A DNA stretch of 64,000 bases from an uncultured Gemmatimonadaceae bacterium (lineage in GTDB: Bacteria; Gemmatimonadota; Gemmatimonadetes; Gemmatimonadales; Gemmatimonadaceae), in the NCBI GenBank assembly GCA_963729495.1, contig CAVSOM010000013.1, forward strand, positions 7,247 to 71,246. The letters run 5' to 3'. Below the pieces are notes generated by a model. The model ran no database searches. It saw only the letters and a program-made list of their open reading frames with translations, and had not been told where the DNA came from. Shown here piece after piece: positions 19,848 through 40,196 of the stretch. The position numbers were made by a program, and so were the translations under genes. The first letter of the stretch is position 1, and every line of letters begins with the position of its first letter.

Positions 19848-20838
19848 CGGGTTGCCGGGGCTCGAGCGGTTCGCGGCGCCCGAGGCGGCGCCGCGGCTCG
19901 ACGTGCTCGTGGCGACGCACCTCGACCTGTCGCGCAACCAGGCGGCGACGCTGATTGCCGGCGGCCGCGTGCTCGTGGACGGCGCACGCCAAAAAGCGAG
20001 CTTTCGCGCCGAGCCCGGCGCGGTGGTCGAGGTGCGCGTTCCGGCCCCGCCCGTACGCGAGGTGATCGCCGAATCCATCGCCCTGGCCGTGGCCTACGAG
20101 GACGACGACGTGCTCGTGGTCGACAAGCCGGCGGGCATGGTCGTGCACCCGGCGCCGGGCAACTGGAGCGGCACGCTGGTGAACGCGCTCAAGGGGCGGG
20201 GCGGGGCGCTGGCCGAGGGCGGCGGGGCCGCCGGAGTAGACCGGGCGGGGATCGTGCACCGCCTGGACAAGGAGACGTCGGGCTTGCTGCTCGTGGCCAA
20301 GACCGATCGCGCCCACCGCGTGTTGGGGGCCGCGCTCGCGCGGCGGGAGATCGTGCGCCGCTACGCCGCGCTCAGTTGGGGACATCTGGCCGAGGACGAC
20401 GTGACGGTGGACCGTCCGCTGGGCCGCGACCCCCGCGACCGCAAACGGATGGCGGTGGTGGCCACGGGCCGTGCGGCGAAGACCACCTTTCATCGCTTGG
20501 CGCGGTTCTCGGCGGTGGATCTGCTGCGGGCCCACCTGTCCACGGGGCGCACGCACCAGATTCGCGTCCACCTGGCGGCCATCGGCCACCCGGTGGTGGG
20601 CGATGACACGTACGGCGGTGGCGGCGCCCGGCGGCTGGTTTCGCTGCCTCCCAAGCGGCATTTTCTCCATGCGGCCTGGCTGGTGTTCCGGCATCCGGTG
20701 TCGGGGGAGCGGATCGAGTTGCGGTCGCCGCTGCCCGCGGATCTGACCGCCGCGCTCACCGCGGTGGCCGGCGACGACGTGGTGTTCGGTGGGGCCGATC
20801 CCCTGGCGTATTTTGGTTTCTACGAGTCCCATGGCTGA
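19840..20838 (+). CDS. rluD: RluA-family 23S rRNA pseudouridine synthase (RluD-like)
   Basis: ORF 19840..20838. N-terminal S4-like region, catalytic [15 protein letters not shown] and GRTHQIRVH. Confidence 0.9.
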
Positions 20839-21247
20839 AGCGCACGAGGTGCGAACCCTGCTGTTTCGCGTGGGGGCGAGCGTGTACGGCTGCGACATCG
20901 CCGCGGTGCGCGAGATCGTCCCGTTCCGGCCGGCGACGCGGCTGCCGGGCACCAAGCCCTACGTGAACGGACTGGTGAACCTGCGGGGCTCGATCGTCAC
21001 GGTGGTGGACTTGGGGGGGCGGCTGGGCGCGGGGGCGGCGGGCGCCGAGGGGTCGATCATCATCGTCGAGATCGACGGGCGGCGGCTGGGCCTGGGGGTG
21101 GGGGACGTGATGGACGTGGTGCCGTTGCGGGTGGAACCGGCGCCCGAAGAGCGGGCCGACGAGGTCGTCCGCGGGCTGGGACATCTGGACGGAACAATCG
21201 TCATAGTACTTGATGTGGGGGCGCTGATGGCGCAGGTGTTGGTGTGA
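20831..21247 (+). CDS. cheW: CheW coupling protein
   Basis: ORF 20789..21247, start ATG 20831 overlapping the rluD stop. CheW-fold sequence LLFRVGASVYGCDIAAVREIV...VNLRGSIVTVVDLG...VGDVMDVV. Confidence 0.85.
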   Translation: MAEAHEVRTLLFRVGASVYGCDIAAVREIVPFRPATRLPGTKPYVNGLVNLRGSIVTVVDLGGRLGAGAAGAEGSIIIVEIDGRRLGLGVGDVMDVVPLRVEPAPEERADEVVRGLGHLDGTIVIVLDVGALMAQVLV

Positions 21248-21253
21248 TGGGAA

Positions 21254-21325
21254 GTACGAGGGTACGAGGGGTCGAGGGTACGAGGGTCGCGCGGGCGCGC
21301 GGCGGTTCCTGCCCGACTGCCCGAC
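21254..21325. repeat. Octamer tandem repeats: 4 x GTACGAGG-type units (21254-21285), then 2 x CTGCCCGA units (21309-21324)
   Basis: Read directly in the cheW|cheY spacer: gtacgagg gtacgagg ggtcgagg gtacgagg ... ctgcccga ctgcccga. The same two octamers recur at 48649-48728 and 57077-57108. Confidence 0.8.
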
Positions 21326-21394
21326 AGGTCGCCCTTCGGCATCCCGGCGTGAGCGGAGCGGTCGTTGTCATGCGTTGATCTTCACGGGAGCGAC

Positions 21395-21757
21395 ATGAGC
21401 CACACGGTGTTGATTTGCGACGACGCGATCTTCATGCGGACGATGGTGGGGGACATCCTCCAGTCGGCCGGATTCGAGATCGTCGGCGAGGCGGAGACCG
21501 GCGTGCAGGCGGTGGAGAAGTACAAGCAGCTGCGTCCGGATCTGGTCACGATGGACATCGTGATGCCGGACATGGGGGGCATCGACGCGGTGCGGGAGAT
21601 CGCGAAGTTCGACCCGCAGGCGAAGATCCTCATGTGCAGCGCCATGGGGCAGCAGGCGTTGGTGGTGGAGGCGATCCAGGCGGGGGCCAAGGACTTCGTG
21701 GTGAAGCCCTTCCAGCCGAGCCGCGTGCTCGAAGCCGTCCAGCGCGTGCTGGGATAA
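21395..21757 (+). CDS. cheY: CheY-like single-domain response regulator
   Basis: ORF 21365..21757, start ATG 21395 with GGGAG 4 nt upstream. Receiver motifs VLICDD, phospho-acceptor context VTMDIVMPDMGG and VVKPF. Confidence 0.9.
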   Translation: MSHTVLICDDAIFMRTMVGDILQSAGFEIVGEAETGVQAVEKYKQLRPDLVTMDIVMPDMGGIDAVREIAKFDPQAKILMCSAMGQQALVVEAIQAGAKDFVVKPFQPSRVLEAVQRVLG

Positions 21758-23800: not shown

Positions 23801-24421
23801 ATGGACGATCTTTCGACCCTCAAGGCGTTGCAGCTCGACGCGCTGCGCGAGGTGGCCAACATCGGGGCGGGGCACGCGGCCACGGCCCTGTCGCAGATGG
23901 TGGGGGGCACGATCATGATCAGCGTGCCGCGCATCAACATCCAGCGGCTCGAGCACGTCGCGCCGCTGGTCGGCTCGCCGGACGAGCCCGTGGCGGCGGT
24001 GCTGCTGCACATTCTCGGCGACCTGTCCGGGCGCACGCTCCTCGTGTTCCCGAAGTCGGCGGCCCTGCGGCTGGCCGAGATGATGCTGCGGCGCCCCGCG
24101 GGCTCGGCCGGCGACCTGGGGGAGCTGGAGCAGTCGGCGATCAAGGAGGCGGGCAACATCCTGAGCAGCGCCTACATGAACGCGTTGAGCGAGTTCATGG
24201 GCATGCTGCTCCTGCCGTCGCCGCCGGCGCTGGCCATCGACATGTCGGCGGCGGTGCTCACCACGGCCTACCTGCAGTTCGGCACCGACCACGACTACGT
24301 GTTCTGCGTCGAGAGCGATTTCATGCTCAAGGACGGCGGAGCAGCGCCTGCGCGGCTTCTTCCTCCTGTTGCCCGATCCGGCGTCGCTGCAGGCGATCCT
24401 GCGCGCGATCCGCGTGACATG
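23801..24421 (+). CDS. cheC: CheC-type CheY-P phosphatase (frame broken near 24335-24341 as sequenced)
   Basis: ORF 23801..24469. Two [D/S]xxxExxN motifs (DALREVAN, SAIKEAGN). After ..MLKDGG another frame gives EQRLRGFFLLLPDPASLQAILRAIRVT and stops at 24419-24421, 2 nt before the next ATG. Confidence 0.8.
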
Positions 24422-24423
24422 AC

Positions 24424-27129
24424 ATGGCGGCCACGAGCCCGGGGTCGGAGCGCGATCGCGAGATCCTGAGATCGTTTGCGCGGCGGATCGATCCGTCCGA
24501 CGCCGGCGCGCACAACAACCTCGGCGTGCTGTACTTTAACAAAAACTTATATGAGGAGGCGGTCCAGGCGTTCATGCGCGCGCTCGAGCTCGATCCGCGC
24601 ATGCAGGTGGCGCAGCGCAACCTCGAGATCGCCTATTTCAACACCGGGTACTACGACGAGCGCGTGCCGGAACTCCGCGACCGCGTGCGCGCCCACCCTG
24701 CCGATCGGGAGGCGCGGTGGGAACTCGCCCGCACGTACGCGCTGCTCGGCGAGCACGCGCAGGCGGTGGAGGAATTCACCGCGCTGCTGCGCTACACGCC
24801 CAACGACGTGGGCGCCGTGCTCCAGCTCGGGCTGTCGGAGCGGGCGTTGGAACACCGCGAGCAGGCCCAGCAGTGGCTGGAACGCGCCCGGTCGCTCGAC
24901 CCCGGCAGTTCGCTGGTCCACTTCTATCTCGGCGAGATCGCCTACAATCGCGGCCTCAACGACGAGGCCATGGCCTCCCTCACCCGCGCCGTGGAATTGA
25001 ACCCGGACAACCACGACGCCCTGTACCTCATGGGATTCGTGTTCGGCGACCTCGGGCGCCAGGACGAGGCGCGCGCCGCCACCAAGCGGGCGATCCAGCT
25101 CAACCCCACGCTCTCGCGGGCCCAGGCCAACCTGTCGATCGACCGGAACAAGCCCGAGCGCTACGAGGCGATGGTGGGCGCGCGCGGCGACCGGCGGTCG
25201 CGCCGCATGGAAGTGGCGCGGGAAGGGCAGCTCGCGCACTACAACCTGGGACTCGCCTTCCGGCAGAAGGGCTACTACGCCGAGGCCCTGGGCGAGTACC
25301 GGCTGGCCATCGACCGCGGCGAGGACGAGGATCTGGTGCGCCAGGCGATGGCCGAGGTGCATCTGGTCACGCGCGACGCCGCGGCCGCCCTCGGCCTCTA
25401 CGACCAGCTCATCGCGCGTCATGCCGACAGCCCCAAGCTCTGGAACGAACGCGGCGTCGCTCTGCACCAGGAGGGCCGGCTCGCCGAGGCCGCCGAGAGC
25501 TATCGCCGGGCCATCGGCGCGGACGCACGCTACGCGCTGGCGCACAACAACCTCGGCGTGGCGCTCTACCACCTCGGCGACGGCGATGCCGCGGTCGCGG
25601 CGTTCACCGCCGCGCTCGACGCGCAGGCGGCCCTCGCCAAGGCGCGGCTGAACCTGGCGCTGCTCCTCTACCGTGCCCGGCGGCTCCAACAGGCGCTGGA
25701 AGCGTACCGCCAGGTGCTCGCGGCCGAACCGGAACATCCCGTGGCGTGGAACGGCGTGGGCCTCGTGCTCGCCGATCTGCGCAAGTTCGAGGACGCGCGC
25801 AACGCGTTCGCGCGCGCCATCCAGGCCCGTCCCCGCTACGCGGAAGCGCACTACAACCTCAGCTTCACGCTCTCCAACCTGGGCGATTTCGAGGGCGCGC
25901 TGCGCGAGACCAAGCTGGCGCTGGAGATCGATCCCTACTATGTGGCGCAGAAGTTCGACCTCGCCATCGACCTCCAATACGAGGACCCGGATCTCTCCAT
26001 CCAGCCCGACCTCGGCGGGGAGCATCGGGCCGACGCGGCGATCGAGGAATTCGCCTTCGATCCGGCGCTGCTCGACGGCGTGTTCACGCAACTCGCGCCG
26101 GCGCCCGCCCCCGCGGCGTCGGCCCCCGCCGACACCGACCCGTACGGAATGGCCGTGGACTACCTCACCAAGGGGTTCTTCGACCGGGCGCAGATGGAGG
26201 CGCGGCGCGCCCTGGCCCACGGGGCCGACCGCACGGCGGGAAACGTGCTCCTGGGGGAGACGTTCGCCCGGCAGGGGCTGTTCGGCGAAGCGCTGGAGCG
26301 CTATCGCGAGGCGCGCCGCGAAGCCCCGGACGACGCGCGGGCGATGCGCGGCGAGGCGCAGGCGCTGCTCAAGCTCGGGCAGGCGGCCGACGCGCGCCCG
26401 ATCGTCGAATCGCTCGTGCTGCGCGCGTCCGAGGACATCGACGTCCTGATGCTCGCGGCCGCGGTGCGCGCGGCCTCGGGCGACCCGGCGGCGGCGCTGG
26501 CCACGCTCGACACGGCGCGGCGCGTGGCCCCGATGCGGGCCGACGTCCACCAGCAGATGGGCGACATCGCCCGCCGCCTGGGCGACTTCGAGGGCGCCAT
26601 CATCGCGTACCGCCACGCGCTCCAGCTCGATCCCCAGTTCGCCGGCGTGCGCTACGAGTTGGCGCGGCTGCTCATCGAGAAGCGCCAGCTGCGCGAGGCG
26701 GAGACGGAACTGCTCGCCGCCCTCGACGCCGTGCCCACGTATGCCGAGGCCTCGCTGGCCCTGGCCACCCTGCGCCGGATGGCGGGACGAGCCGACGACG
26801 CGCTCCCCCTGCTCATCGACCTGCTGCAGCGCGATCCGTACCACTTCGACGCCCTGATCGCGCTCGGCGAGACGCTGTTGGTGCTCCACCGCAAGGACGA
26901 CGCGGTCACGGCGTTCACGCGCGTGCTGCGGTTCGACCCCGATCACGTCGGCGCGTTGTATCATGAGGGCGTGCTCCTGGCCGAGCGGCGGCGGTATCGC
27001 GAGGCGATCGAACGCTGGGAGCGGGTGCTGACCCTGGCTCCATCGGGTGAATACGCCCGGCGCGCGCGCCGCGAGATCCGCTCGGCGTCCGACCTCCAGC
27101 GCATCTTCGCCGACCGCAGGACCGGCTGA
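24424..27129 (+). CDS. Large tetratricopeptide-repeat (TPR) protein, 901 aa
   Basis: ORF 24424..27129. Repeats of the type AHNNLGVLYFNKNLYEEAVQAFMRALELDP recur throughout. I saw no TM or enzymatic motif. Confidence 0.8.
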   Translation: MAATSPGSERDREILRSFARRIDPSDAGAHNNLGVLYFNKNLYEEAVQAFMRALELDPRMQVAQRNLEIAYFNTGYYDERVPELRDRVRAHPADREARWELARTYALLGEHAQAVEEFTALLRYTPNDVGAVLQLGLSERALEHREQAQQWLERARSLDPGSSLVHFYLGEIAYNRGLNDEAMASLTRAVELNPDNHDALYLMGFVFGDLGRQDEARAATKRAIQLNPTLSRAQANLSIDRNKPERYEAMVGARGDRRSRRMEVAREGQLAHYNLGLAFRQKGYYAEALGEYRLAIDRGEDEDLVRQAMAEVHLVTRDAAAALGLYDQLIARHADSPKLWNERGVALHQEGRLAEAAESYRRAIGADARYALAHNNLGVALYHLGDGDAAVAAFTAALDAQAALAKARLNLALLLYRARRLQQALEAYRQVLAAEPEHPVAWNGVGLVLADLRKFEDARNAFARAIQARPRYAEAHYNLSFTLSNLGDFEGALRETKLALEIDPYYVAQKFDLAIDLQYEDPDLSIQPDLGGEHRADAAIEEFAFDPALLDGVFTQLAPAPAPAASAPADTDPYGMAVDYLTKGFFDRAQMEARRALAHGADRTAGNVLLGETFARQGLFGEALERYREARREAPDDARAMRGEAQALLKLGQAADARPIVESLVLRASEDIDVLMLAAAVRAASGDPAAALATLDTARRVAPMRADVHQQMGDIARRLGDFEGAIIAYRHALQLDPQFAGVRYELARLLIEKRQLREAETELLAALDAVPTYAEASLALATLRRMAGRADDALPLLIDLLQRDPYHFDALIALGETLLVLHRKDDAVTAFTRVLRFDPDHVGALYHEGVLLAERRRYREAIERWERVLTLAPSGEYARRARREIRSASDLQRIFADRRTG

Positions 27130-27131
27130 CC

Positions 27132-28275
27132 ATGGCGATCGAAGGCCCCCTCCGCGAACTCGGCATCCACGACGTCTTCCAGCTGCTCGACCTGAGCCGC
27201 AAGACGGGCACGCTGCGCGTGACCTCGGAGCTGCGCGACGACGAGGGCATGGTGCACTTCGCCAGCGGCCGCATCATCCAGGCCAGCATCCGCAGCCGGC
27301 CGATGTCGCTGGAGCAGCTGCTGCTGGCGTCGGGCAAGATCACCGATGCCGACGTGGCCGCGGCCCACGCCCGCGCGGGGACCGAGACGACCGGGGGCGC
27401 GCTGGCCGACGCGCTCGTGGCCGGCGGCGCCGTGTCGCAGCGCGAGCTGGATCGCGCAGGTGCGGCAGCAGGTGGAGGCCGTGGTGTTCGAGCTGATGTC
27501 GTGGCAGGAGGGGTTCTTCTCCTTCGAGGAGCTGCCCGTCGCGTCGCTGCCCGCCGACACCCGGGTCAGCGTGTCCACCGAGTCGCTGCTCATGGAGGGG
27601 GCGCGCCGCATCGACGAGTGGTCGCGGATCGCCGAGCGCGTGCCCAATCTCTCGGTCGTGCCGCAATTCGCGCCCGTGGCCGGCGAGCACGACGCCCAGC
27701 TCGACCTGCTGCCGCACGAGTGGGAGGTGCTGACGATGATCGACGGCGCGCGCGATCTGCGCGACATCGCCGGCTCGCTGGGCCGCAGCGATTTCGAGGT
27801 GGCGCGCGTGGCCTACGGCCTCGTGACCACGGGGATCGTGGAGCTGAAGACGCCGGCGCGGCGCGGCCGCGATTCGCGGCCGGTGGCGGTGGACGGGGCC
27901 GCTCCCCTGGAGCGGGCGCGCGCCGCGATGGCCGATCGCGAGTTCGCCTCGGCGCTGGAGGCGGCCCGGGCCGCCGTCGACGGCAACGGCACCGACGCCC
28001 GCCTGCTCGCCGCCCGCGCCCTCGTCAAGCTGAGCCGGTATCCCGAGGCGCTCGACGAACTGCGGCGGGCGGTGCACGCCGACCCCCTCACGCCGCGGGT
28101 CCACTTCGATCTGGCATTCGCCGCCGCCCGGGTGGGCGAGTTCGCCACGGCGCGCGCGAGCTGGGAGCACTTTCTGCGGCTGTCGCCGACCGGCCCGGAT
28201 GCGGCGCGCGCCCGGTCGTCGCTCGAGGCGCTGACGCGGCTCATGAACCTGCTCGAGGCCGACGCCGATGACTGA
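27132..28275 (+). CDS. PATAN (DUF4388) domain protein with C-terminal TPR region (frame broken near 27451-27458 as sequenced)
   Basis: ORF 27132..28271 starts MAIEGPLRELGIHDVFQLLDLSRKTGTLRV..VHFASGRIIQA (DUF4388/PatA-N-like opening). The frame of ORF 27346..28275 continues QVRQQVEAVVFELMSWQEGFFSFEE...IDEWSRI... plus TPR-like helices. It is a paralog of 32332..33959. Confidence 0.7.
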
Positions 28276-29140
28276 CGACATCCGGCGCTGGAGCGACGAA
28301 CTGGCGCGCGACCCGGCCAGCCTGGCGTTTCTGCCGCTCGGCGAGGCGCTCCGCCGCCAGGGGCAGTTGGACGTCGCCCGCCGGGTCGCCCTGCGCGGCC
28401 TGGAACGCCATTCCCACCACCCCGACGCCCACGACCTGCTGGCCCGCGTGTACGTCGACGCCGGCGAACTGGAGAAGGCGTTCGACGAATGGGACATGGC
28501 GCTCCGCCTGGCGCCCGAACATACCGGTTCTCTCAAAGGCCTGGCGTTCGTGTGCTTCCAGCAGGGGCGCTTCGAGGACGCCGAGGGCTACTTGCGCCGC
28601 GCCGCGCTCGGCGATGCCCCAGACGCGGGCATCGGCGCCGCGCTCGACACCGTGCGCCGCAGCACGGGCTCGCTCCGCGCGGCCGACGTCGAGGCGGCGG
28701 CCGCGGCCAACGCGGCGGACGCCCCCTCCGCGCCGGCGTACCTGTTCGCGCCGGTGCTCGACGGCGGGGAGCAGACCGCCCTGCTGCTCGACGCCTCGGG
28801 GCTCGTCCTGGCCGGCGCCTACTTCACGGCCGACGGCCGCGACGTCGCGCCGGAGGTCGGCGCCCAACTCAGCGGCGTGTCCGACGAGGCCGACCGCGCC
28901 ACGCGGCACCTCGGACTCGGCGTGTGGACATCGATCGTGTTCGAGACCGAAGTGGCCGTGGTCGCGATGACGCCGGCAGCGGACGGCGGCTTGCTCGTGC
29001 TCGCCGCGTCGCGGGCCACGCCGCTCGGGTTGCTGCGCCGGCTGCTCGACCGCTGCGCCGAGCGCGCCCGCGCGTGGCTCGCCCGCGGCGCGGCCGGTGG
29101 CGGGGCGGGCGGCGGCACGGCTGCCGGGGGGCCGCCATGA
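28268..29140 (+). CDS. TPR + Roadblock/LC7 (MglB-fold) fusion protein
   Basis: ORF 28268..29140. N-terminal TPR helices (..LARVYVDAGELEKAFDEWDMALRLAPEH..), an Ala-rich linker, then a Roadblock-like C-terminus (ALLLDASGLVLAG...VFETEVAVVAMTPAADGGLLVLAAS). Confidence 0.65.
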   Translation: MTDDIRRWSDELARDPASLAFLPLGEALRRQGQLDVARRVALRGLERHSHHPDAHDLLARVYVDAGELEKAFDEWDMALRLAPEHTGSLKGLAFVCFQQGRFEDAEGYLRRAALGDAPDAGIGAALDTVRRSTGSLRAADVEAAAAANAADAPSAPAYLFAPVLDGGEQTALLLDASGLVLAGAYFTADGRDVAPEVGAQLSGVSDEADRATRHLGLGVWTSIVFETEVAVVAMTPAADGGLLVLAASRATPLGLLRRLLDRCAERARAWLARGAAGGGAGGGTAAGGPP

Positions 29141-32331: not shown

Positions 32332-33959
32332 ATGGCGATCAAGGGCAGCTTGAAGGAGGCCAGCCTCCCCGACGTGCTCCAGCTCCTGGCGATGGGCAAG
32401 AAGACCGGATGCCTGAGCGTGACGCCACCGCACGAACTTCGGCTACATCTACTTCGACAAGGGGCGCATCTCGTACGCGTCCATCGTCAACCGCCGCGAC
32501 CGGCTGGGCGACATGCTCGTCAAGAACGGCATCATCAGCGCCGACGAGCTGCAGGCGGCGATCGACGCGCAGGAGCGCCACCGCGACCGTCGCATCGGCG
32601 AACTGCTCATGGACATGGGCTTCCTCTCGCGCGAGGCCCTGCGCCAGCACATCCGCGAGCAGATCGAGGAGGCCGTCTACTTCCTGTTCACCTGGAATCA
32701 GGGAACGTTCAACTTCGAAGCCGACGTCCAGCCCGAGGAGCAGGACTTCCTCGTCTCGATCAACCCCGAGTCGCTGCTCCTCGAGGGCGCGCGGCGGGTG
32801 GACGAGTGGACCCTCGTCGAGAAGAAGATCCCCACGTTCGACATCGTGTTCGAGATCGACCGCCCGAAACTGGAAAAGAGCGACGTGGAACTGACCGCCG
32901 AGCAGCGAGCGCTGCTCGAGCTGGTGGACGGCCAGCGCGACGTGCAGCAGATCATCGACGCCTCGGGGATGGGCGAGTTCGACGTCGGCAAGCTGCTCTA
33001 CGGCCTGGCCACGGCCGGCTTCCTGCACCGCATCGGCACCTCCAAGGCGGCCGGACCGCAGGTCGTCCGACGCGCGCGTGGAGGAGCACTACAACCTCGG
33101 CGTGGCGTTCTACAAGACCGGTATGTTCGACGAGGCGGTGCGCGAGTTCCGCCGCGTGCTCGATCTGCGGCCGCAGGACCTCTCGGCCCGGTTCTTCCTC
33201 GGCCTGGTGGCGCTGCGCCAGGAGCGGTGGGCCGACGCCCTCGCCGTATACGAGGAGGCCGCCGCGCGTCTGGGCGCCGCGGCCGCGGCGTACCACAACA
33301 TGGCCTACGCCCTGGAGCGGCTGGGCCGCTTCGCCGACGCGCAACGCGCGCTGCACGAAGCGGCCAAGCGCAGCGGCGGCACCAATCCGGTCATCCAGGC
33401 CTCGATCGGCATCGTCGCGCTGCGCGCGCGGCGACCTGGCGGCCGCCGACGAGGCGCTCCGCGCCGCGCGCCCCCTCTGGGCGGCGCCGCCCGCCCACGG
33501 CGGCCTGGTATCACTACTCGGCGCTCACCGCCGCGCTGCTCGGCGACCTGGCGCGCGCCCAATCACTGCTCGACGAGGCCGTCGGCGCGCATCCGCGCAG
33601 CGCCATGCTCCACAACAACCTCGCCGTGGTGCTGGAGCGCCGGAACAACCCGGGCGGCGCGTCGGCGGCGCTCGATCGCGCGCTGGCCGAGGATCCGTCG
33701 GTGCCCCAGATCCACAAGAACCTGGGCGACGTGGCCTATCGCGCCGGCCGGTTCGACGATGCCCTCGCCGATTACCAGCGGGCGATCAAGGCCGATCCCG
33801 AGCTGGGCGACGACGTCTACCTCAAACTCGGCAACATCCGCTTCCGGCAGCAGCATCGGGACGAGGCGCTCGCGCTGCTGGGAGCGGGCGCTGGCGCTCG
33901 ATCCGACCAACGCCATCGTGCGCACCAACCTCGAGGCGGTGCGCCAGGCGCCCGAATGA
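32332..33959 (+). CDS. PATAN (DUF4388) domain protein with C-terminal TPR repeats (5 frame breaks as sequenced)
   Basis: MAIKGSLKEASLPDVLQLLAMGKKTGCLSVT joins FGYIYFDKGRISYASIV...ALRQHIREQIEEAVYFLFTWNQGTFNFE...VDEWTLV.. Next come the TPRs EEHYNLGVAFYKTGMFDEAVREFRRVLDLRP, YHNMAYALERLGRFADA, AMLHNNLAVVLERRNNPGGA and IHKNLGDVAYRAGRFDDALADYQRAIKADP. It ends WERALALDPTNAIVRTNLEAVRQAPE. Pieces lie in the frames of ORFs 32332, 32513 and 33078. Breaks are at ~32424-32427, ~33065, ~33429, ~33490-33505 and ~33878. Confidence 0.65.
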
Positions 33960-34782
33960 CCGAGGCCGACCCCCCGGACGACGGATTCCAGGCCCTGCTC
34001 GACAAGATTTCGCGCGACCGCGGGTTTCGCTGCGCCAGCTACAAGCCCACCTGCCTGCGCCGCCGCGTGGGCGTGCGTATGCGCGCCCGCGGCGTGCATC
34101 GATACGCCGACTACGCCGGGCTGCTCGATCGCGACGCCGCCGAGTACGACCTGCTGCTCGACGCGCTCACGATCAACGTCACCAAGCTGTTTCGCAATCC
34201 GGAGGTGTACCACGCGCTGGCGCGCGAGGTCGTGCCGGCGCTCTGGGCGTCGTCGCAGCGCGCGGATCCGCGTGTGGTGCGCCGGGTGCGCGTCGGGGGA
34301 GGAGCCGTACTCCGTGGCCGCGCTGTTCCATCGGCACGCCGAGGAGCGCCGGGGCCTGGCCGACCTGGGCCGCGTGGACGTGCTGGGCACCGACATCGAC
34401 CGGCGCAGCCTCGAGGCGGCCGAGCGGGGCGAGTTCGAGGAGGGAGACTTCAGCGAGACGCCGCCCGAGTGGCGGACGCGGTACTTTTCACCCGAGCCGC
34501 CGTTCGCCGTGCGGCCCGAAATCCGCCGCCTCGTCCGGTTCCGGCGAGCACGACATGCTGCGCGAGCCGCCGGCGCGGCCGGTCAACGACCTGATCGTGT
34601 GCCGCAACGCGATCATCTACTTCGACCGGACCTCGCAGGAGCGGCTGTTCGAGACGTTCTACTCGGCGCTCAGTCCCGGAGGGTTCCTCGTGCTCGGCAA
34701 AGTCGAAACGCTGTTCGGCGCGGCCCGCCAGCTCTTCGCGCCGGTGAACGGCCGCGAACGCATCTTCCGGCGACCGGCGTGA
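33956..34782 (+). CDS. cheR: Chemotaxis protein methyltransferase CheR (2 frame breaks as sequenced)
   Basis: ATG 33956 overlaps the upstream stop (ATGA). Sequence reads FQALLDKISRDRGFRCASYKPTCLRRRV...TKLFRNPEV, then IRVWCAGCASGEEPYSVAALF...VLGTDID (frame of ORF 34272), then DLIVCRNAIIYFD...GGFLVLG with stop at 34782. Breaks are at ~34265 and ~34545. Confidence 0.8.
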
Positions 34783-35276
34783 GCGATCGACGCGTCGGCA
34801 TCGCCGACCTCGCCGCGGCCACCGAGGGCACGCTGACGACGATCGGTCTCGGGTCGTGCGTGGCGATCGTGCTGTACGACGCCCAGGCGCGGGTGGGTGG
34901 CCTGGCGCACGTCCTGCTCCCGGCCCGCGACCCCGACCCCGACCCCGACCCGGGCGGGCGCCCGACAACCCGGCGCGCTATGCGGTGACCGCGCTGCCCG
35001 CGCTCGTGGAACAGATGACCGCGCTGGGCGCCGACCGCCGCCGGATGACCGGCGCGGCTCGCCGGCGGCGCCAGCATGTTCGCGTCGCTGCTGCCCAGGG
35101 GCACGGTCACGATCGGCGAGCGCAACGTGGCCGCTGCGCGGCAGACGCTCGCCGAGGCCGGCATTCCGCTGGTGGGCGAGGACGTGGGCGCCGATCACGG
35201 CCGGAGCGTGTGGCTGTCGGTGGCCGACGGCACGATGGAGGTCCGCTCCCTCGCCCGGGGCACGCGTGTCCTCTAA
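34779..35276 (+). CDS. cheD: Chemoreceptor glutamine deamidase / CheC-activator CheD (2 frame breaks as sequenced)
   Basis: GTG 34779 overlaps the cheR stop (GTGA). Sequence reads LTTIGLGSCVAIVLYD..GGLAHVLLP, (PD)4 repeat, NPARYAVTALPALVEQM, then ARLAGGASMF...ERNVAAARQTLAEAGIPLVGEDVGADHGRSV. Breaks are at ~34950-34960 and ~35051. Confidence 0.75.
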
Positions 35277-36330
35277 GCCCACCGTCCTCGTCGTGGACGA
35301 CAGCGCGCTCATGCGGCGCGTGATCGCCGACCTGGTGGCCGAGTCGGGCGAATTCACGGTGATCGGCACCGCGCGCAACGGGCGAGAGGCCGTGGAGCGC
35401 GTGCAGGCGCTCGACCCCGACCTGGTGACGCTCGACATCGAGATGCCGGAGCTGGACGGCCTCGAGGCGCTCACGCGGATCATGCGCGACCGGCCGCGGC
35501 CGGTGGTCATGCTGAGCGCGGCCGAAACGGTGGACGGCCGCGACGCGACGCTGCGCGCGTTGGAGCTGGGCGCGGTGGATTTCGTGCGCAAGCCGTCGGG
35601 GGCGATCAGCATGGACCTGCCCGTGATCGGCGAGCGGCTGCGGGGCGCCCTGCGGGCCGCCGGCCAGGCCAACGTGGGGACGCTGGCGCTGGTGGCCGAG
35701 CGCCGGGAGCCGCCGCGCCGCGCGTCGGGGCCGCTGCCGCACGGCCCGCTCCGGGCCGTGGCCATCGCCGCGTCCACGGGCGGTCCGCGCGCGCTCACCG
35801 CCGTGCTGCCGGCCTTGCCGCGCACGCTCGACGCGGCGGTGTTCGTCGTGCAGCACATGCCGGCGGGCTTCACGAAGAGCCTCGCCCATCGTCTCGACGC
35901 GATGGGCCCGCTCCCCGTGCACGAGGCGGAGGCGGGGCAGGTCGTGCAGGCCGGTCACGTGTACGTGGCGCCGGGCGGCCTGCACATGCGCGTGGCCGGC
36001 GGCGCGGAGCCGGCGATCGCCCTGGACACGGCGCCGCCGCTGTGGGGCGTGCGGCCGTCGGCCGACCCGCTGTTCGAGTCGGTGGCCCGCGTGTGCGGCG
36101 CGCACGCGGTAGGCGTGGTGCTCACCGGGATGGGGCGCGACGCGGCCGACGGGCTGCGGGCCATCCGGGCGGCGGGGGGGCGGGCCGTGGTGCAGGACCG
36201 CGCCACGTCGACCATCTACGGCATGCCGCAGGCGGCGCTGCAGCTGGCCGGGGCCGACCGCGTGGCCCCGCTGGACGCCGTGGCCCCGGCGATCGTCGAG
36301 TACCTGACGGCCATGAGCAAAAACCTATGA
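35266..36330 (+). CDS. cheB: Chemotaxis response regulator protein-glutamate methylesterase CheB
   Basis: In-frame part of ORF 34897..36330 from GTG 35266. Receiver VLVVDDSALMR...VTLDIEMPELDG. Methylesterase motifs AIAASTGGP, VVQHMPAGFT and LTGMGRDAADG. Confidence 0.9.
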   Translation: MSSKPTVLVVDDSALMRRVIADLVAESGEFTVIGTARNGREAVERVQALDPDLVTLDIEMPELDGLEALTRIMRDRPRPVVMLSAAETVDGRDATLRALELGAVDFVRKPSGAISMDLPVIGERLRGALRAAGQANVGTLALVAERREPPRRASGPLPHGPLRAVAIAASTGGPRALTAVLPALPRTLDAAVFVVQHMPAGFTKSLAHRLDAMGPLPVHEAEAGQVVQAGHVYVAPGGLHMRVAGGAEPAIALDTAPPLWGVRPSADPLFESVARVCGAHAVGVVLTGMGRDAADGLRAIRAAGGRAVVQDRATSTIYGMPQAALQLAGADRVAPLDAVAPAIVEYLTAMSKNL

Positions 36331-37123
36331 TCGACGAACACTGGGGGCTGCGCGTCAAGCCGTTCGCCAACACGCCCGACCCGGCGTTCGTGTACCACTC
36401 CCCGGTGTTCGACGAGGGGTTCGCCCGGCTGCTCTACGACGTCACCGACCTGCGCGGCGGCTTGTCGCTCGTCACGGGCGAGATCGGCTGCGGCAAGACG
36501 ATGCTGGTCGAGGCGCTCCGCCACCGGCTGGCCGGCACCCCGTTCGACCCCTGGATCGTTCCCTATCCGCGGCTCACCGGGGCGCAGCTCCTGCAATTCG
36601 TGGCCGCGGCGGCCGAACTCGCCCACCCGCCGCGGAGCAAACCGGCGCTGGTCGCCGCCCTGCGCCGTCGCGTCGCCGACCAGCACGCCGCCGGCCGGCG
36701 GCCGGTGATCGTGGTCGACGAGGCCCAACTCGCCAGCCCCAGCCTGCTCGAGGAACTGCGGCTGCTCACGAACCTCGAAGACCGCACCGACAAGCACGTC
36801 CACGTGGTGTTGCTCGGGCAGCCCGAGTTGCGCGACCGCATCTGAAGCGTCCGCAGATAGACCAGCGCGTGAGCCTGCGCTTCCATCTCGATCCGCTCGA
36901 TGCCGGCGACGTGAGGGAGTACGTGCTGCACCGCCTGCGCGTGGCCGGAGCCACCCATGAAATCTTCACCGAACCGGCGATGACCGCGCTCGCCGCGCGC
37001 AGCGGCGGCGTGCCGCGTCTGATCAACAACCTCGCCATGCAGGCGCTGTTCGTGGGCGCGATGCGGGGCTCGCCGCGCGTGGACGACGCGCTGGTGCACG
37101 ACGTAGCCGACGATCGCCAATGA
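36327..37123 (+). CDS. ExeA-like (AAA_22-type) AAA+ ATPase (frame broken at ~36840 as sequenced)
   Basis: ATG 36327 overlaps the cheB stop (ATGA). Walker A TGEIGCGKT, Walker B VIVVDEAQ and LLGQPELRDR. ORF 36869..37123 continues ..QRVSLRFHLDPLDAGDVREYVLHRLRVAG..GGVPRLINNLAMQAL, the typical ExeA/GspA-like C-terminal half. Confidence 0.7.
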
Positions 37124-37875
37124 AGAAGCCCTCGAAGATCCGCTATCGCGAGCTGCTCGACCGGCCGCCCACCCCCGCGCGGGGATCGGACGCGCTGCCG
37201 GCGGCCCCCGCGCCCGAAGCCTCCGAGCCGGCGCCCGCGCCCGCGCCGTCGCCCGTCCCAATCGTCGCGGCCGAGGTGCGGCGCGTGCCCGCGGCGCCCG
37301 ATACGGCGACGCCGGCGCCCGAGCCGCCCGAGCCGCCGGAGCCCGCCGGCGACCGGGCCTCCATGGCGCTCGACGGCGATGCACCCGCGGACGATCGCGC
37401 GACGCCGACGGCGCCGGCGCCGACCCCGACCCCTACGACCGCGCTCGACGCGGAGTACCTGGTGTTCCGCGTGGGCCAGGAGCTGTTCGCGCTCCCCCTC
37501 GACGCCGTGGACGAGGCGATCGACATCGACCACGTGCAGCCGATCCCCGAGACGAGCGCCACGATGCTGGGCGTGCTCTCGCTGCGCGGCGCGCTCGTGC
37601 CGGTGTACGCTCCCTCGGCGGCGTTGGGCGTGGCGGCCGAGACGCGCGCCGCGGCCCTCGTGTTCGCCACGCCCCGCGGCCTCGTGGCCCTGGCCGTGGA
37701 CGACGTGGACGATGTGATGCCCATCCCGCTCGCGGCGCTCCAGCGCGCCCCGGTGGATTTCGGCGACGGCGTCCTGGTTGGCGTGGCCCGCCGCGATGGC
37801 GATCTTATCGGAGTGCTCGACGCCACGGCCCTTCTGGCGGCGTGCCGCGCCGAGCCCGTTCTGGAGACCGCATGA
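37120..37875 (+). CDS. CheW-domain protein with ~110-aa Pro/Ala-rich N-terminal extension
   Basis: ORF 37120..37875. Low-complexity PAAPAPEASEPAPAPAPSPVP... is followed by a CheW-like core YLVFRVGQELFALPLDAVDEAIDI...VLSLRGALVPVY...LAVDDVDDV. Confidence 0.75.
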   Translation: MKKPSKIRYRELLDRPPTPARGSDALPAAPAPEASEPAPAPAPSPVPIVAAEVRRVPAAPDTATPAPEPPEPPEPAGDRASMALDGDAPADDRATPTAPAPTPTPTTALDAEYLVFRVGQELFALPLDAVDEAIDIDHVQPIPETSATMLGVLSLRGALVPVYAPSAALGVAAETRAAALVFATPRGLVALAVDDVDDVMPIPLAALQRAPVDFGDGVLVGVARRDGDLIGVLDATALLAACRAEPVLETA

Positions 37876-38354
37876 CCAAGCCGCGCACCGTCAAGATCGT
37901 GTCGTTCCGCCTCGGCGCCGACTACTTCGCCGCGGACATCTTCTCGGTGGAGCGCGTGCTGCGCCACCAGGCGCCCACCGCCGTGCCCAACGTGCCCGAA
38001 TGGATCGACGGCGTGGTGGAGTACCAGGGTCGCGTGCTGCCGGTGGTGAGCCTGCGGCGGCGGTTCCAGCTGCCGGCGGCCGACGCCACGCCCGACACGC
38101 GCATTCTCGTCATCAAGTCGGAGGGCGAGTGGGTGGGCGTCGTGGTCGACGCCGTGCTCGAAGTGACCAGTCTGGACGAGGCGCAGGTCTCGCCGCCGCC
38201 GGCGCTGTTTCGCGGCCTGGCCGGCGAGTACCTGCGCGGCATCGTGCGGCTCGGCGACCGGCTGCTGGTCTATCTCGACGTCGAACGCCTGCTGTCGTCC
38301 GACGAGCGGCTGACCCTGGAGCGGGTGGCGGAGGAGGCCCTGCCGCATGGCTGA
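37872..38354 (+). CDS. cheW: CheW coupling protein
   Basis: ORF 37842..38354 from ATG 37872 (ATGA overlap). Sequence IVSFRLGADYFAADIFSVERVL...VVEYQGRVLPVVSLRRRF...VVVDAVLEV. Confidence 0.85.
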   Translation: MTKPRTVKIVSFRLGADYFAADIFSVERVLRHQAPTAVPNVPEWIDGVVEYQGRVLPVVSLRRRFQLPAADATPDTRILVIKSEGEWVGVVVDAVLEVTSLDEAQVSPPPALFRGLAGEYLRGIVRLGDRLLVYLDVERLLSSDERLTLERVAEEALPHG

Positions 38355-39192
38355 TTCCGTGCTCGCCGAACGCCGGGCGCAGTTCGCCGCGCTGGACGCG
38401 CGGCTCGAGGCCCCCACCGCGAGCGCCGAGCGCGACGCCCTGAAGGCCGACATCGTCGGGTTCTTCAAGCTGGTGGAGCAGGAGGCCGCCGACCTGGCGC
38501 AGATCCGGGACGACGTCAAGGCGCTGGTCGAAAAGTGGAAGGCCCTGGGCGCGCAATCGCTGGCCCCCGCGTTCGAGGCGGCGCGGCCGGTGGTGCACGC
38601 CGATCACATCGGCGCGTCCACGTTCATCGAGAAGGGGTGGAGCCGGCTCTCGCTGGGCGAGTACGAGGGCGCCGAGGCCGCGTTGCGCAAGGCTATCGCG
38701 CTCTCCCCCAACGACCCGCAGTCGGAGGCGCTGCTCGGCTGGGCGCTGATGCTGCAGGAGAAGTACGACGACGCCCTGATGACGTTCCAGCAGGTGCTGA
38801 TGCGCGAGCCGCTCAACGCGCTCGCCCGCATCAACGTCGGCTACATCTGCCTCAAGAAGGGGATTTTCGGCGAGGCGATCGAGCACCTGTCCAAGGCCAT
38901 CCGGCTGGACAACGACAAGAAGGCCACGTTGTACGCGCACTTCTATCTCGGGCTCGTGTACCTCGAGCGCGACATGTTCGAAGACGCGCAGACGTTCTTC
39001 CAGAAGACCATCGCGCTGGGCCCCAATCTGATCGAGGCGCACTACGAACTGGGGCGGGCGTACTGGTTCAACGGCCAGCGCGACGAGGCGCTGCAGGCAT
39101 GGCGCGACGGTTTCGCCCAGAACAAGTTCAATCCATGGGGAAAGAAGTGCGCCGAGGTGCTGCGGACGGTGGAGGAGGGCGGGGAGCCGTAA
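38347..39192 (+). CDS. Coiled-coil + TPR protein
   Basis: ORF 38347..39192. N-terminal helical region, then TPRs (YEGAEAALRKAIALSPNDPQS, YDDALMTFQQVLMREPLN, FGEAIEHLSKAIRLDNDK, FEDAQTFFQKTIALGPN). Confidence 0.75.
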   Translation: MADSVLAERRAQFAALDARLEAPTASAERDALKADIVGFFKLVEQEAADLAQIRDDVKALVEKWKALGAQSLAPAFEAARPVVHADHIGASTFIEKGWSRLSLGEYEGAEAALRKAIALSPNDPQSEALLGWALMLQEKYDDALMTFQQVLMREPLNALARINVGYICLKKGIFGEAIEHLSKAIRLDNDKKATLYAHFYLGLVYLERDMFEDAQTFFQKTIALGPNLIEAHYELGRAYWFNGQRDEALQAWRDGFAQNKFNPWGKKCAEVLRTVEEGGEP

Positions 39193-40196
39193 TCGGGACC
39201 CGCGTCAAGCCGCCGCGCCGGTGGCGCGTCGTCGGGGCCCTGGTCGTCGCGGCGTGGATGGCGCCGTCGCCCGCCGCCGCTCAGTCGGCGGCCCCCGTGC
39301 GGCTCGACCGCGGGCGCTTCACCGTGGTGGCGTACCCCGCAGACGCGACGCTCGCCCGGACGATTCTCGACGTCGCGCTCGCCCACGACACCTTTCCCGG
39401 TCTGCCGCGGCCGCGCGAGCACGTGCTCATCGCCATCGCCCCCGACGCGGCGCGGTTCCGCGAGTGGGCGGGGCCGGGCGCGCCGGAGTGGGGCGCGGCG
39501 CTCGCCTTTCCCGACCGCCGGCAGATCATATTGCAGGGGAGCCGTGCGGGCGCCGACGCGGGCGATCCGGTGGAGGTCGTGCGCCACGAACTGGCCCACC
39601 TGGCGCTGCACGAATACCTGGGCGACCTGGCGCCGCGCTGGTTCGACGAGGGGTACGCCAGTTTCTCGGCGCACGAGTTCACGGGCAGCGACGCCCTGGC
39701 CGCCAACCTGGCGCTCGCCATCCAGGGGGTGCCCACCCTCGACGGGCTCGAGGGATTCTTCGCCGGCGGGGCGACGACGGCGCGAGCCGGATACGCGCTC
39801 GCCGCGAGCGCGGTGTCGGATCTGGCGGCGCTCGACCCGTCGCGCGGGTTGAGCCGGGTGTTCGCGGCGTGGCGCGACACGGGTTCGCTCGACCAGGCGC
39901 TGCGCCGCGCGGACGGCACGACCCTCGACGCGTTCGAGGCCGAATGGCGGACGCGCGCGCGGCGCCGCTACGGCGCGCTGGCGCTGATGGAAGACCTGAC
40001 GCTGGTGGGGATCCTGCTCCTCGTCGTGATCGTTCCGCTCTGGCTGGCCCGCCGGCGGCGCGATCGCGCGCGGTTCGCCGCCCTCGTGGCGGCCGACGAC
40101 GCGGCCGATGCCGCGGCCCGCGAGAGCGCGCTGGCCGAGTTGCTTCGTCCGTGGCCGGCGGAGGACGAGCACGAATCCGACGCAGGGAGCCCGTAA
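39147..40196 (+). CDS. Exported, C-terminally membrane-anchored HExxH protein (Peptidase_MA_2-like)
   Basis: Part of ORF 38535..40196. Signal-like WRVVGALVVAAWMAPSPAAAQS. HELAHLALHEY...PRWFDEGYASF is the same motif spacing as in the 985-aa protein. C-terminal TM LTLVGILLLVVIVPLWLARRRR is followed by an acidic tail. The start is uncertain: GTG 39147 or ATG 39135, both overlapping the upstream gene. Confidence 0.55.
   Translation: MRRGAADGGGGRGAVIGTRVKPPRRWRVVGALVVAAWMAPSPAAAQSAAPVRLDRGRFTVVAYPADATLARTILDVALAHDTFPGLPRPREHVLIAIAPDAARFREWAGPGAPEWGAALAFPDRRQIILQGSRAGADAGDPVEVVRHELAHLALHEYLGDLAPRWFDEGYASFSAHEFTGSDALAANLALAIQGVPTLDGLEGFFAGGATTARAGYALAASAVSDLAALDPSRGLSRVFAAWRDTGSLDQALRRADGTTLDAFEAEWRTRARRRYGALALMEDLTLVGILLLVVIVPLWLARRRRDRARFAALVAADDAADAAARESALAELLRPWPAEDEHESDAGSP

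Follow-up and report, generated by a model that had tools for sequence, protein, structure and literature searches.

A conserved gene cluster of Gemmatimonadota combines chemosensory, MglA-type GTPase, and DnaA-like ATPase genes and may steer a polar cell machine

Overview

A stretch of 64,000 nucleotides from an uncultured Gemmatimonadaceae bacterium (GenBank assembly GCA_963729495.1, contig CAVSOM010000013.1, positions 7,247 to 71,246), referred to here as the window, contains a cluster of 20 genes at positions 20831-40196. The cluster joins the genes of a Che chemosensory pathway to those for a Ras-like GTPase of the MglA type, an MglB-like protein, two further Roadblock proteins, two PATAN proteins, several tetratricopeptide repeat (TPR) proteins, and AAA+ ATPases, one of which is a tandem ATPase related to DnaA. 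It is conserved in Gemmatimonadota and is probably co-transcribed as a signaling operon. The description that appears to fit it best, and that is held with somewhat more confidence than doubt, is a signal-controlled MglA polarity device. In its fuller form, to which a probability of about 0.5 is given, phosphorylated CheY (CheY~P), GTP-bound MglA (MglA-GTP), and cyclic dimeric guanosine monophosphate (c-di-GMP) would converge on an assembly of TPR, PATAN, and AAA+ proteins and so govern a polar envelope machine, for which type IV pili are the likeliest candidate. Such steering of a polar cell machine does not seem to have been described, and one component pair, the DnaA-like ATPase and the PATAN protein encoded next to it, may be new in kind.

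Conservation and Layered Architecture

An earlier note on this DNA, made from the letters of the window, had reported the linkage of che genes with genes for MglA/MglB, PATAN, Roadblock, and DnaA-like proteins. This linkage recurs in dozens of species-level genomes and is not accidental. One genome per GTDB species was surveyed with a family-alignment scan, which gave 93 confirmed loci, and the best 80 were retained (individual loci are cited by number, as in L001). Presence was scored by tblastn, with flanks of 10 kb per side, and a gene was counted solely where the contig extends far enough. The best 80 of the 93 loci are all from Gemmatimonadota. The tandem DnaA-like protein has 832 database relatives, and all of the named ones are from Gemmatimonadota as well.

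The first PATAN-TPR protein (PATAN1), the TPR-Roadblock protein, the Roadblock protein, MglB, MglA, the DnaA-like ATPase, and the second PATAN-TPR protein (PATAN2) are each present in 98-100% of loci. CheY and a 901-residue TPR protein (TPR901) follow at 97%, and a 281-residue TPR protein (TPR281) and a putative HExxH peptidase are found in 100%. The Che proteins are less regular, with CheA and CheC at 79-80% and CheR, CheD, CheB, and two extra CheW proteins at 84-88%. The ExeA-like ATPase is present in 60%. L001 possesses all 20 genes in the same order as the window, and L003 possesses the same set minus the ExeA-like gene.

The chromosomal site is also fixed. On the left are ileS-dksA-lspA-lspA-rluD, and on the right is a gene for a TPR protein of 570-580 amino acids followed by rsmH-ftsL-ftsI of the dcw division genes. 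A defense island or mobile element was considered and rejected, as all genomes examined have the locus at this same housekeeping site. In at least 27 species, che genes stand in a fixed order to either side of the core, with stop codons that overlap the next start, and chance insertion is hard to reconcile with such an arrangement.

Several loci are natural variants. In L013, L017, L021, L023/L084, L046, and L060 the che genes are gone and the core remains at the same chromosomal site, with a CheY-like receiver directly upstream of it. This receiver is kept in six of the seven Che-less loci that reach far enough upstream, L036 being the one without it. More divergent relatives, found by an exhaustive profile search, are without MglA, MglB, and Che proteins and keep the DnaA-like ATPase, a PATAN-TPR protein, and a Peptidase_MA or TPR gene; two of these MglA-less relatives also adjoin rluD.

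The locus is thus built in layers. The base consists of the DnaA-like ATPase, the PATAN-TPR protein, and the TPR/peptidase genes. To it are added CheY, TPR901, PATAN1, two Roadblock proteins, MglB, and MglA, then the Che proteins, and then the ExeA-like ATPase. The invariant heart is the pair of DnaA-like ATPase and PATAN2-TPR, whose genes are translationally coupled or nearly so. By this hierarchy the effector is probably the AAA+/PATAN pair, to which the GTPase and the Che proteins would be added as regulatory layers. The layered modularity, the Che-less and MglA-less variants, and the predicted c-di-GMP motif of PATAN2 described below go beyond the earlier note.

Coding Frames and Gene Junctions

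The window has a GC content of ~72%, and as a result a raw list of open reading frames (ORFs) is swamped by spurious frames. Coding frames were called with a frame plot of GC content at third codon positions (GC3) and a codon-usage Viterbi tracker that penalizes in-frame stops, and the tracker was checked against intact orthologues by tblastn and a sliding-frame scan. A plain ORF list and a strict GC3 filter were dropped; spurious frames abounded in the one and broken genes were missed by the other. The Pfam scan was run on frame-corrected translations of the window genes.

Frame tracking placed all coding between 18 and 44 kb, the cluster included, exclusively on the + strand. All 20 family assignments of the earlier note were supported by Pfam, PDB, or NCBIfam matches of the corrected translations, and the order of the genes, which is that of Table 1, was also as described. 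The spacer between the first cheW and cheY measures 147 nt, and no other junction exceeds 24 nt. Within the cluster, start and stop codons overlap by 4-12 nt at ten junctions, including every one cited previously, so the tight gene coupling that had been proposed holds. An eleventh overlap, 5' of the peptidase gene, hinges on the uncertain start of that gene. The stop codon of rluD is overlapped by 8 nt by the first cheW, and the gene coordinates of L001 show the same overlaps as the window. A scan of the cluster for promoters and terminators gave counts no different from those in shuffled sequence and is therefore uninformative on operon structure.

The Tandem DnaA-Like ATPase

The DnaA-like protein consists of two AAA+ modules. 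The halves match DnaA domain III structures in the PDB with E = 4e-57 and 8e-48, and an AlphaFold2 (AF2) model (predicted local distance difference test score, pLDDT, 82.6) aligned in Foldseek with Bacillus subtilis DnaA domain III (8bv3) at a template modeling (TM) score of 0.91 and a root-mean-square deviation (rmsd) of 2.0, with 43% identity. Bac_DnaA_C (domain IV) and DnaA_N (domain I) were found neither in the window protein nor in the Pfam lists of 120 homologues. The match to the DnaA model TIGR00362 is limited to profile positions 103-341 of 437. Against the Hda model TIGR03420 the protein scores 181 bits, short of the 194.8 required, and its tandem build also differs from the single module of Hda. 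The label "replication-initiator-type" used in the earlier note therefore applies to the AAA+ domain III and does not extend to domain I or to the DNA-binding domain IV.

In the family alignment, the Walker A and B residues of the second half show little or no variation, and the same is true of its box VII arginines and its sensor II arginine. In the first half Walker A and B are retained, and the box VII arginines are not conserved. When the family member P0045 is aligned with B. subtilis DnaA, its N-terminal half is seen to retain Walker A, Walker B, sensor I, box VII, and sensor II. The lid is present in most members (~645 aa). The clade of the window protein (566-581 aa) has lost ~80 residues from its first half (30608-31100), and a comparison of P0002 with P0045 identified these as the lid with sensor II. 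The helical linker and the C-terminal tail are family-specific and highly conserved.

The TIGR00362 cutoff is passed solely by summing the two halves (NCBIfam, P0045), and this explains the "DnaA" annotations in public records. Members of this family are systematically mis-annotated as "chromosomal replication initiator protein DnaA" or "DnaA/Hda family" in Gemmatimonadota genomes.

The resemblance to DnaA invites the view that the locus is a cell-cycle or division device. In that case the DnaA domain III tandem would co-oligomerize or compete with DnaA, or bind single-stranded DNA, the signals would gate replication, budding, or division, and the position next to the dcw genes would be functional. 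The closeness of both halves to DnaA and the retained ATPase motifs are in keeping with this, as is the location of the locus, always between ileS/rluD and rsmH-ftsL-ftsI. The minimal variants without MglA and Che proteins imply a core function independent of a motility-type switch, and c-di-GMP is a known cell-cycle signal (PMC12448109). However, the protein is without the domain I that interacts with DnaB and DiaA and the domain IV that binds DnaA boxes, and in the clade of the window the first half has neither lid nor sensor II. The partner families, PATAN, MglA/MglB, TPR, and ExeA-like, are tied to pili or motility, and the genes around a relative fused to a receiver (REC) domain are phosphorelay genes, with none for replication among them. 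The earlier proposal of a cell-cycle device drew solely on the DnaA-like fold and the dcw adjacency, and that adjacency is conserved synteny that may simply be inherited. A cell-cycle or division device is regarded as improbable.

The REC-fused relative is found in L088 (9249-12939), where a tandem DnaA-like ATPase with a C-terminal REC domain is followed by Hpt-REC-Hpt-REC genes beside a hybrid histidine kinase. In this protein the DnaA ATPase fold acts as the output domain of a response regulator.

Giant proteins of up to 1990 aa are encoded in L086 (4309-15923) and L089 (2681-13179) between pilD and pilB-pilT-pilC. They possess an N-terminal MshEN domain, a DnaA-like ATPase, a long Glu/Ala/Lys-rich stretch that by eye is coiled-coil-like, and a second DnaA-like ATPase. 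The two contigs are unrelated and independent, and the proteins seem to be a so far undescribed accessory encoded with type IV pili. They were rejected as close kin of the Gemmatimonadota ATPase, being rare and having an ATPase domain 58-60% identical to Firmicutes DnaA.

PATAN Proteins and a Predicted c-di-GMP Motif

Both PATAN proteins of the cluster run into TPR repeats, and neither has a Response_reg match in Pfam. The gene for PATAN2 is always directly 3' of the DnaA-like gene, also in the minimal variants. PATAN2 probably contains a c-di-GMP sensor, predicted from an MshEN motif that lies inside the PATAN domain and that would be a new receptor context. Pilus and secretion ATPases of the PilB/MshE type sense c-di-GMP through MshEN, and the published motif of this sensor consists of two copies of RLGxx(L/V/I)(L/V/I)xxG(L/V/I)(L/V/I)xxxxLxxxLxxQ, each of 24 residues (PMC5013675), and the two make up a domain of ~53 residues. 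In the window the PATAN2 pair reads RLGDMLVKNGIISADELQAAIDAQ, 6 residues, RIGELLMDMGFLSREALRQHIREQ; residues 58-81 fit the strict motif and residues 88-111 a relaxed one.

The L001 orthologue matches the NCBIfam model NF053729 ("c-di-GMP-binding motif, MshE-related") over residues 57-110 with 50.6-51.9 bits against a cutoff of 38. All 77 N-termini of PATAN2 orthologues match this model (E <= 1e-3), and 76 of the 77 match the MshEN region of NfrB. Shuffled sequence gives ~0.001 regular-expression matches per sequence. The central Gly of the motif is often Ser or Ala in distant orthologues. The window copy of PATAN1 has no MshEN-type motif, and in 57 PATAN1 orthologues no more than a single motif turned up, in two of them.

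PATAN proteins have been linked with pili elsewhere. In cyanobacteria a PATAN domain binds PilB1 and PilC and suffices to reverse pilus-driven phototaxis, and in Myxococcus the PATAN protein SgnC is required for S-motility and MglA sorts the pilus motors (bioRxiv 10.1101/2021.06.11.447907).

MglA, MglB, and Roadblock Proteins

The GTPase of the cluster is of the Group 1 type. In phmmer searches it matches Myxococcus xanthus MglA (5ymx/6h17/6hjh) over its full length with E = 1e-72 and Thermus thermophilus MglA (3t12) with 1e-63. Its P-loop, TDRTLFFDF, and YTVPGQ segments are identical to those of M. xanthus MglA, and it has the intrinsic Arg in switch I (TDRTLFFDF), the Thr for Asp in PM3, and the catalytic Gln (TVPGQ) that mark Group 1. 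Identity across loci is 72-93%. Group 1 MglA proteins have been reported from Gemmatimonadetes, with occasional PATAN neighbors (Wuichet and Søgaard-Andersen, 2014; PMC4316618). Table S2 of that study lists, for Gemmatimonas aurantiaca, GAU_1115 as "MglB>MglA>" and GAU_1409 as "PATAN>MglA>-PATAN>".

The gene upstream of mglA encodes a Roadblock protein that is a putative GTPase-activating protein (GAP) for MglA. Its sole credible PDB matches are to MglB (M. xanthus 6h5b, E = 5e-6; T. thermophilus, 0.011). The gene ends 24 nt upstream of mglA and is its neighbor in 67 of 68 loci. Two more Roadblock proteins are present. The stand-alone one has generic Robl_LC7 proteins, not MglB, as its top PDB matches. 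Both were tried as candidates for MglC and rejected; the stand-alone protein gave these generic matches, and the search with the TPR-Roadblock protein was swamped by its TPR part.

Chemosensory Genes

CheA, CheW, and CheY are identified by Pfam, and the adaptation proteins CheR, CheB, CheC, and CheD all score above the Pfam gathering thresholds. The TTG start of cheA was taken from the alignment with L001, and tblastn with the L001 CheA spans the full length of the gene. By Pfam the kinase has one Hpt domain and no REC domain. The first CheW is 77% identical to its L001 orthologue over the full length.

CheY is the most conserved protein of the cluster. It matches CheY of Thermotoga maritima (1tmy) over its whole length with E = 8e-51, in an alignment that covers the DD acidic pocket, the acceptor Asp in TMDI, and the CSAMG and KPF segments, and it matches an archaeal CheY (6er7) with 4e-43. 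Identity to the window copy is 82-98% in loci that contain che genes and 67-75% in Che-less loci.

MCPsignal, the Pfam domain of methyl-accepting chemotaxis proteins (MCPs), is absent from the proteins of the cluster, and no MCP signaling-hairpin motif was found in any frame of the window. Nor do the genes called in the 10-kb flanks of the cluster in L001, L003, L084, and L085 include an MCP. The arrangement is not of the Frz type, as judged by Pfam, with a CheA lacking REC, no MCP in the cluster, and a single-domain protein as the sole stand-alone receiver. Nor does it match the Pil-Chp system of the type IV pilus (Tfp) class, whose ChpA-type kinase has multiple Hpt domains and a C-terminal REC, for the CheA here carries a single Hpt domain and lacks REC.

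The che genes could instead serve general, flagellar chemotaxis. In that case CheY~P would act on the flagellar switch, the MglA/PATAN/DnaA-like core would be a separate polar-landmark or unrelated module, and the two would be neighbors by ancestry and gene packing. The closeness of CheY to that of T. maritima is as this view predicts, and the five-domain CheA with P2, together with CheC, CheD, CheR, and CheB, forms an ordinary motility set. The core also stays where the che genes are lost and so works without them, and a linked MCP is missing in many general che operons. On the other side are the bracketing of the core by the che genes in fixed order and the behavior of CheY in the Che-less loci. 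There the receiver is kept directly upstream of the core and has diverged, which fits a protein whose lasting partner is the core. General chemotaxis is considered unlikely as the whole explanation. The assertion in the earlier note that this is not a flagellar che operon nevertheless goes too far, since a CheY near that of T. maritima and the CheC/CheD set mean that the che module may also, or instead, drive flagella.

Frame Breaks in the Window

At least 17 frame breaks were found between 24.3 and 36.9 kb by tblastn with intact L001 orthologues and by the sliding-frame scan (Table 1). They raise the possibility that the cluster is a decaying, non-functional pseudogene array in this genome, with 17 breaks in 12.6 kb. 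The breaks are clustered, at ~1.35 per kb from 24.3 to 36.9 kb and with none from 37 to 46.8 kb, and homopolymer error was rejected as their cause. Their contexts are not homopolymers, so a simple error model of that kind fails, and both points speak for decay.

However, similar breaks occur elsewhere, at 17986, 19652, 46897, 50654, 58205, and 58349, with more in 58-62.5 kb. This second patch is of similar density (~1.4-1.8 per kb for the two patches). Breaks are carried by the essential genes ileS, murE, murD, and ftsZ, and by lspA, and Pfam domains run across each of them. Within the cluster the corrected genes each reach a natural stop without an in-frame stop codon, and the broken genes align end to end with intact L001 orthologues except at the break points. 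For example, cheC falls into two tblastn pieces, in frames +1 and +2, and cheR into three. Identity to L001 in broken genes (83-95% in MglA, CheR, and the ExeA-like ATPase) is at the level of the unbroken genes, and the orthologues are intact in L001, L003, L084, and L085.

As IleS, MurE, MurD, and FtsZ are broken in the same manner and the orthologues elsewhere are intact, the breaks are taken to be sequence errors and not pseudogenes. This answers the worry, raised in the earlier note, that the genes are genuinely inactivated. The patchiness of the breaks suggests low-quality stretches of the source assembly. True pseudogenization of the cluster is unlikely, and a non-functional, decaying array is very improbable indeed.

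Other Genes of the Cluster and Its Borders

Table 1. Features of the cluster and its borders in the window, with the loci that possess each gene among those whose contigs extend far enough.
Feature	Position	Strand	Support	Frame breaks	Loci
rluD (context), left border of the locus	19840..20838	+	Pfam S4 and PseudoU_synth_2		
cheW, first copy	20831..21247	+	Pfam CheW 101.7 bits		
cheY, single-domain receiver	21395..21757	+	Pfam Response_reg 108 bits		32/33
cheA, five domains P1-P5	21766..23790	+	Pfam Hpt, P2, H-kinase_dim, HATPase_c, CheW		27/34
cheC	23801..24422	+	Pfam CheC 75.6 bits, two stretches	1 (near 24335-24341)	
TPR901, 901-aa all-TPR protein	24424..27129	+	Pfam TPR_2, 12 stretches, and other TPR families		36/37
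PATAN1-TPR	27132..28275	+	Pfam DUF4388 94.6 bits and TPR	1 (near 27455)	54/54
TPR and Roadblock/LC7 protein	28268..29140	+	Pfam TPR families and Robl_LC7 29.6 bits		56/57
Roadblock/LC7 protein	29137..29483	+	Pfam Robl_LC7 35.8 bits	1 (near 29368)	65/66
mglB-like Roadblock protein, putative GAP	29480..29956	+	PDB matches to MglB		67/68
mglA, Group-1-type Ras-like GTPase	29981..30587	+	PDB match	1 (~30380)	78/78
Tandem DnaA-domain-III AAA+ ATPase	30608..32330	+	Pfam Bac_DnaA, two stretches, 229 bits	3 (near 30758, 31470, 31522)	
PATAN2-TPR	32332..33959	+	Pfam DUF4388 (PF14332) 130.2 bits and TPR	5	72/72
Predicted MshE-type c-di-GMP-binding motif pair in PATAN2 helical insertion	32501..32662	+	NCBIfam and regular expression		
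cheR	33956..34782	+	Pfam CheR_N and CheR 155.8 bits	2	49/58
cheD	34779..35276	+	Pfam CheD 95.8 bits	2 (near 34956, 35057; frame scan)	46/53
cheB, REC and methylesterase	35266..36330	+	Pfam Response_reg and CheB_methylest 211.5 bits		44/50
ExeA/MshM-type AAA_22 ATPase, optional	36327..37123	+	Pfam AAA_22 77.9 bits	1 (36842)	25/42
Pro-rich N-terminus and CheW	37120..37875	+	Pfam CheW 84.3 bits, residues 112-240		35/40
cheW, second single-domain copy	37872..38354	+	Pfam CheW 124.3 bits		34/39
TPR281, 281-aa TPR protein, core	38347..39192	+	Pfam TPR_2, four stretches		38/38
HExxH Peptidase_MA_2-like protein, core	39189..40196	+	Pfam Peptidase_MA_2 30.8 bits against a gathering score of 32.4		36/36
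577-aa TPR protein (context), right neighbor	40590..42323	+	Pfam TPR_14/16/19		

Among the remaining genes, TPR901 (84% identity to L001) is a candidate scaffold or effector. TPR281 is kept in the Che-less loci as well. The ExeA-like ATPase aligns end to end with TIGR03015 (PEP-CTERM/ExeA-type) at 185.6 bits, below the cutoff of 324.5, and no secretin or pilus genes were found near it. The ExeA-like assignment of the earlier note was sound, and the two ORFs into which the gene had been split (36327-36845 and 36843-37123) are a single gene with a frame break.

The HExxH protein falls short of the Pfam gathering score in the window, and its orthologues carry precomputed Pfam matches. It has a C-terminal hydrophobic segment. 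The start at 39189 given in the earlier note does not stand, as no start codon is there. A start at the next in-frame ATG, at 39258, would cost the protein its predicted hydrophobic segment at the N-terminus, and the GTG at 39221 is out of frame. One more frame break may lie between 39189 and 39258.

An ORF of 989 aa on the - strand (2392-5358) has the HExxH-type motif SAHEFAHLAHL, which by eye is like the RHELAHLALHE of the cluster peptidase. At 5661-6954 the tracker found no convincing coding frame; the best + frame there is Arg/Gly/Ala-rich low complexity with internal stops.

The left neighbor rluD is shared with L001, L003, L084, L085, and L087. Two tandem lspA paralogues (signal peptidase II, Peptidase_A8), at 18795-19337 and 19335-19847, are directly upstream of it, and the duplication is also found in the relative L084. 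On the right, the 577-aa TPR protein (TPR577) has an N-terminal hydrophobic, signal-like segment, and its gene is separated from the cluster by a gap of 393 nt and followed by rsmH, ftsL, and ftsI. In L001, L003, L084, and L085 this place is taken by a gene for a protein of 567-582 aa. TPR577 may or may not be part of the system.

Proposed Function

In the proposed mechanism, receptors encoded elsewhere would form MCP-CheW-CheA arrays that set the level of CheY~P, and CheR, CheB, CheD, and CheC would give adaptation. Three inputs would act on the TPR/PATAN/AAA+ assembly: CheY~P, MglA-GTP until MglB switches it off, and c-di-GMP through PATAN2. This assembly would in turn control where or when a polar envelope machine is active. 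The likeliest machine would be the type IV pilus motor, because PATAN binds PilB and PilC, MglA sorts pilus motors, and MshEN is found in ATPases of the PilB/MshE type. Type IV pili as the actual output are proposed tentatively, with the odds leaning against them. That the DnaA domain III tandem and the c-di-GMP-sensing PATAN-TPR protein form a previously unrecognized effector pair, on which the Ras-like GTPase, CheY~P, and c-di-GMP converge, is a possibility put forward as less likely than not. The REC-fused tandem in a phosphorelay cluster and the MshEN and DnaA-like fusions at pil genes offer analogies for DnaA domain III as a signaling part.

A number of observations weigh against convergence on a pilus-type machine. 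No pilus, gliding, or flagellar gene was found in the window, as had been noted earlier, nor in the 10-kb flanks of the cluster at any of the loci examined. The CheY resembles the flagellar-type CheY of T. maritima very closely, the CheC/CheD set is of the ordinary motility type, and some cultured Gemmatimonas are flagellated. The membership of the MglB-like protein is weak, with 21.1 bits for Robl_LC7 against a gathering score of 23 and 24.9 bits for NCBIfam NF052242 against a cutoff of 200, and no guanine nucleotide exchange factor (GEF) of the RomR/RomX type was identified in the cluster. For the c-di-GMP motif, the relaxed expression finds both half-motifs in only 23 of 77 PATAN2 orthologues and one in 45, the inter-motif spacer is 6 residues where the published one is 5 (PMC5013675), and a single-sequence AF2 model of the insertion, with four helices, is poor (mean pLDDT 48.6). 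The MshEN-DnaA fusions, being rare and nearer to Firmicutes DnaA, point to independent recruitment and so provide analogy and not homology-based support.

The polarity device would be of interest for several reasons. Gemmatimonadota are abundant in soils and little studied, and this locus is among their most conserved signaling features. The whole circuit is encoded in one operon with candidate adaptors (TPR, PATAN, Roadblock, and AAA+ proteins), and the Che-less, MglA-less, and ExeA-less variants constitute a natural "deletion series." Together these make the route from CheY~P to a small GTPase testable in a second phylum. The locus also points to a non-replicative role of the DnaA ATPase fold. 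If the ATPase oligomerizes like DnaA or communicates with DnaA, chemosensing would be linked directly to polarity and possibly to replication or division. We know of no bacterial system with such a direct link.

Comparison with Known Systems

The earlier note knew of no described system with this composition, and no paper on it was found; the search was limited to open-access papers, so an earlier description is possible. The papers found do not mention the che linkage, the DnaA-like ATPase, the Roadblock set, or the c-di-GMP motif in this context. A literature search on the motility machinery of Gemmatimonadota gave nothing usable.

The closest parallel in content is the Frz pathway of Myxococcus with MglA/MglB, RomR/RomX, and MglC. 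Both systems have a chemosensory pathway, a Group-1-type MglA, an MglB-like protein, extra Roadblock proteins, and large TPR proteins; in Myxococcus, SgmX is an effector of MglA. The che and mgl genes are in one operon here and are unlinked there, which agrees with the earlier note, and mglA is away from its signaling partners in both Myxococcus and Bdellovibrio (PMC4316618). The CheA here is of the classical P1-P5 form, whereas FrzE is a CheA-REC fusion, and the cluster is without a FrzCD-type receptor, FrzZ, RomR, or RomX. Conversely, the Frz/Mgl scheme has no counterpart of the PATAN proteins, the tandem DnaA-like ATPase, the c-di-GMP motif, or the HExxH protein.

The cyanobacterial Tax/Pix systems with PatA-type (PATAN-REC) proteins also combine Che signaling with PATAN. 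There PATAN is the output that binds PilB1 and PilC, and its helical insertion resembles the N-terminus of PilB/GspE. In the Gemmatimonadota cluster PATAN is fused to TPR and not to REC, CheY is a separate protein, MglA/MglB and the AAA+ proteins are added, and there are no linked pil genes.

The actinobacterial conservons (CvnA-D) are a precedent for an mglA encoded beside its signaling partners, as they are operons with a histidine kinase, a Roadblock/MglB homologue, and an MglA-family GTPase (PMC4316618). They differ in having a membrane sensor kinase instead of CheA, a Group 2 MglA, and DUF742, and they are without Che adaptation, PATAN, TPR, and AAA+ proteins.

Two further comparisons concern single proteins. 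The predicted motif of PATAN2 shares with the MshEN domains of MshE/PilB/GspE and NfrB the two tandem 24-residue motifs and passes the NCBIfam model. It is an insertion in PATAN here and the N-terminus of a secretion ATPase or glycosyltransferase there, and c-di-GMP binding by PATAN2 is a prediction from sequence. Each half of the tandem ATPase shares with DnaA and Hda the domain III fold, sequence, and nucleotide-binding motifs. It differs in its duplicated AAA+ module, its family-specific helical linker and tail, and the absence of domains I, II, and IV, and it is encoded in a signaling operon and not at oriC.

Finally, in archaeal and F1-type systems CheY is coupled to a type-IV-pilus-like motor through adaptors. 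Here too there is a CheC/CheD set and a CheY near those of Thermotoga and archaea, and these are indirect hints of the F1 class. The parallel is chiefly in the idea of a canonical CheY redirected by lineage-specific adaptors. In contrast to those systems, no CheF or archaellum genes are present, and the adaptors in Gemmatimonadota would be the TPR proteins, PATAN, MglA, and the AAA+ ATPases.

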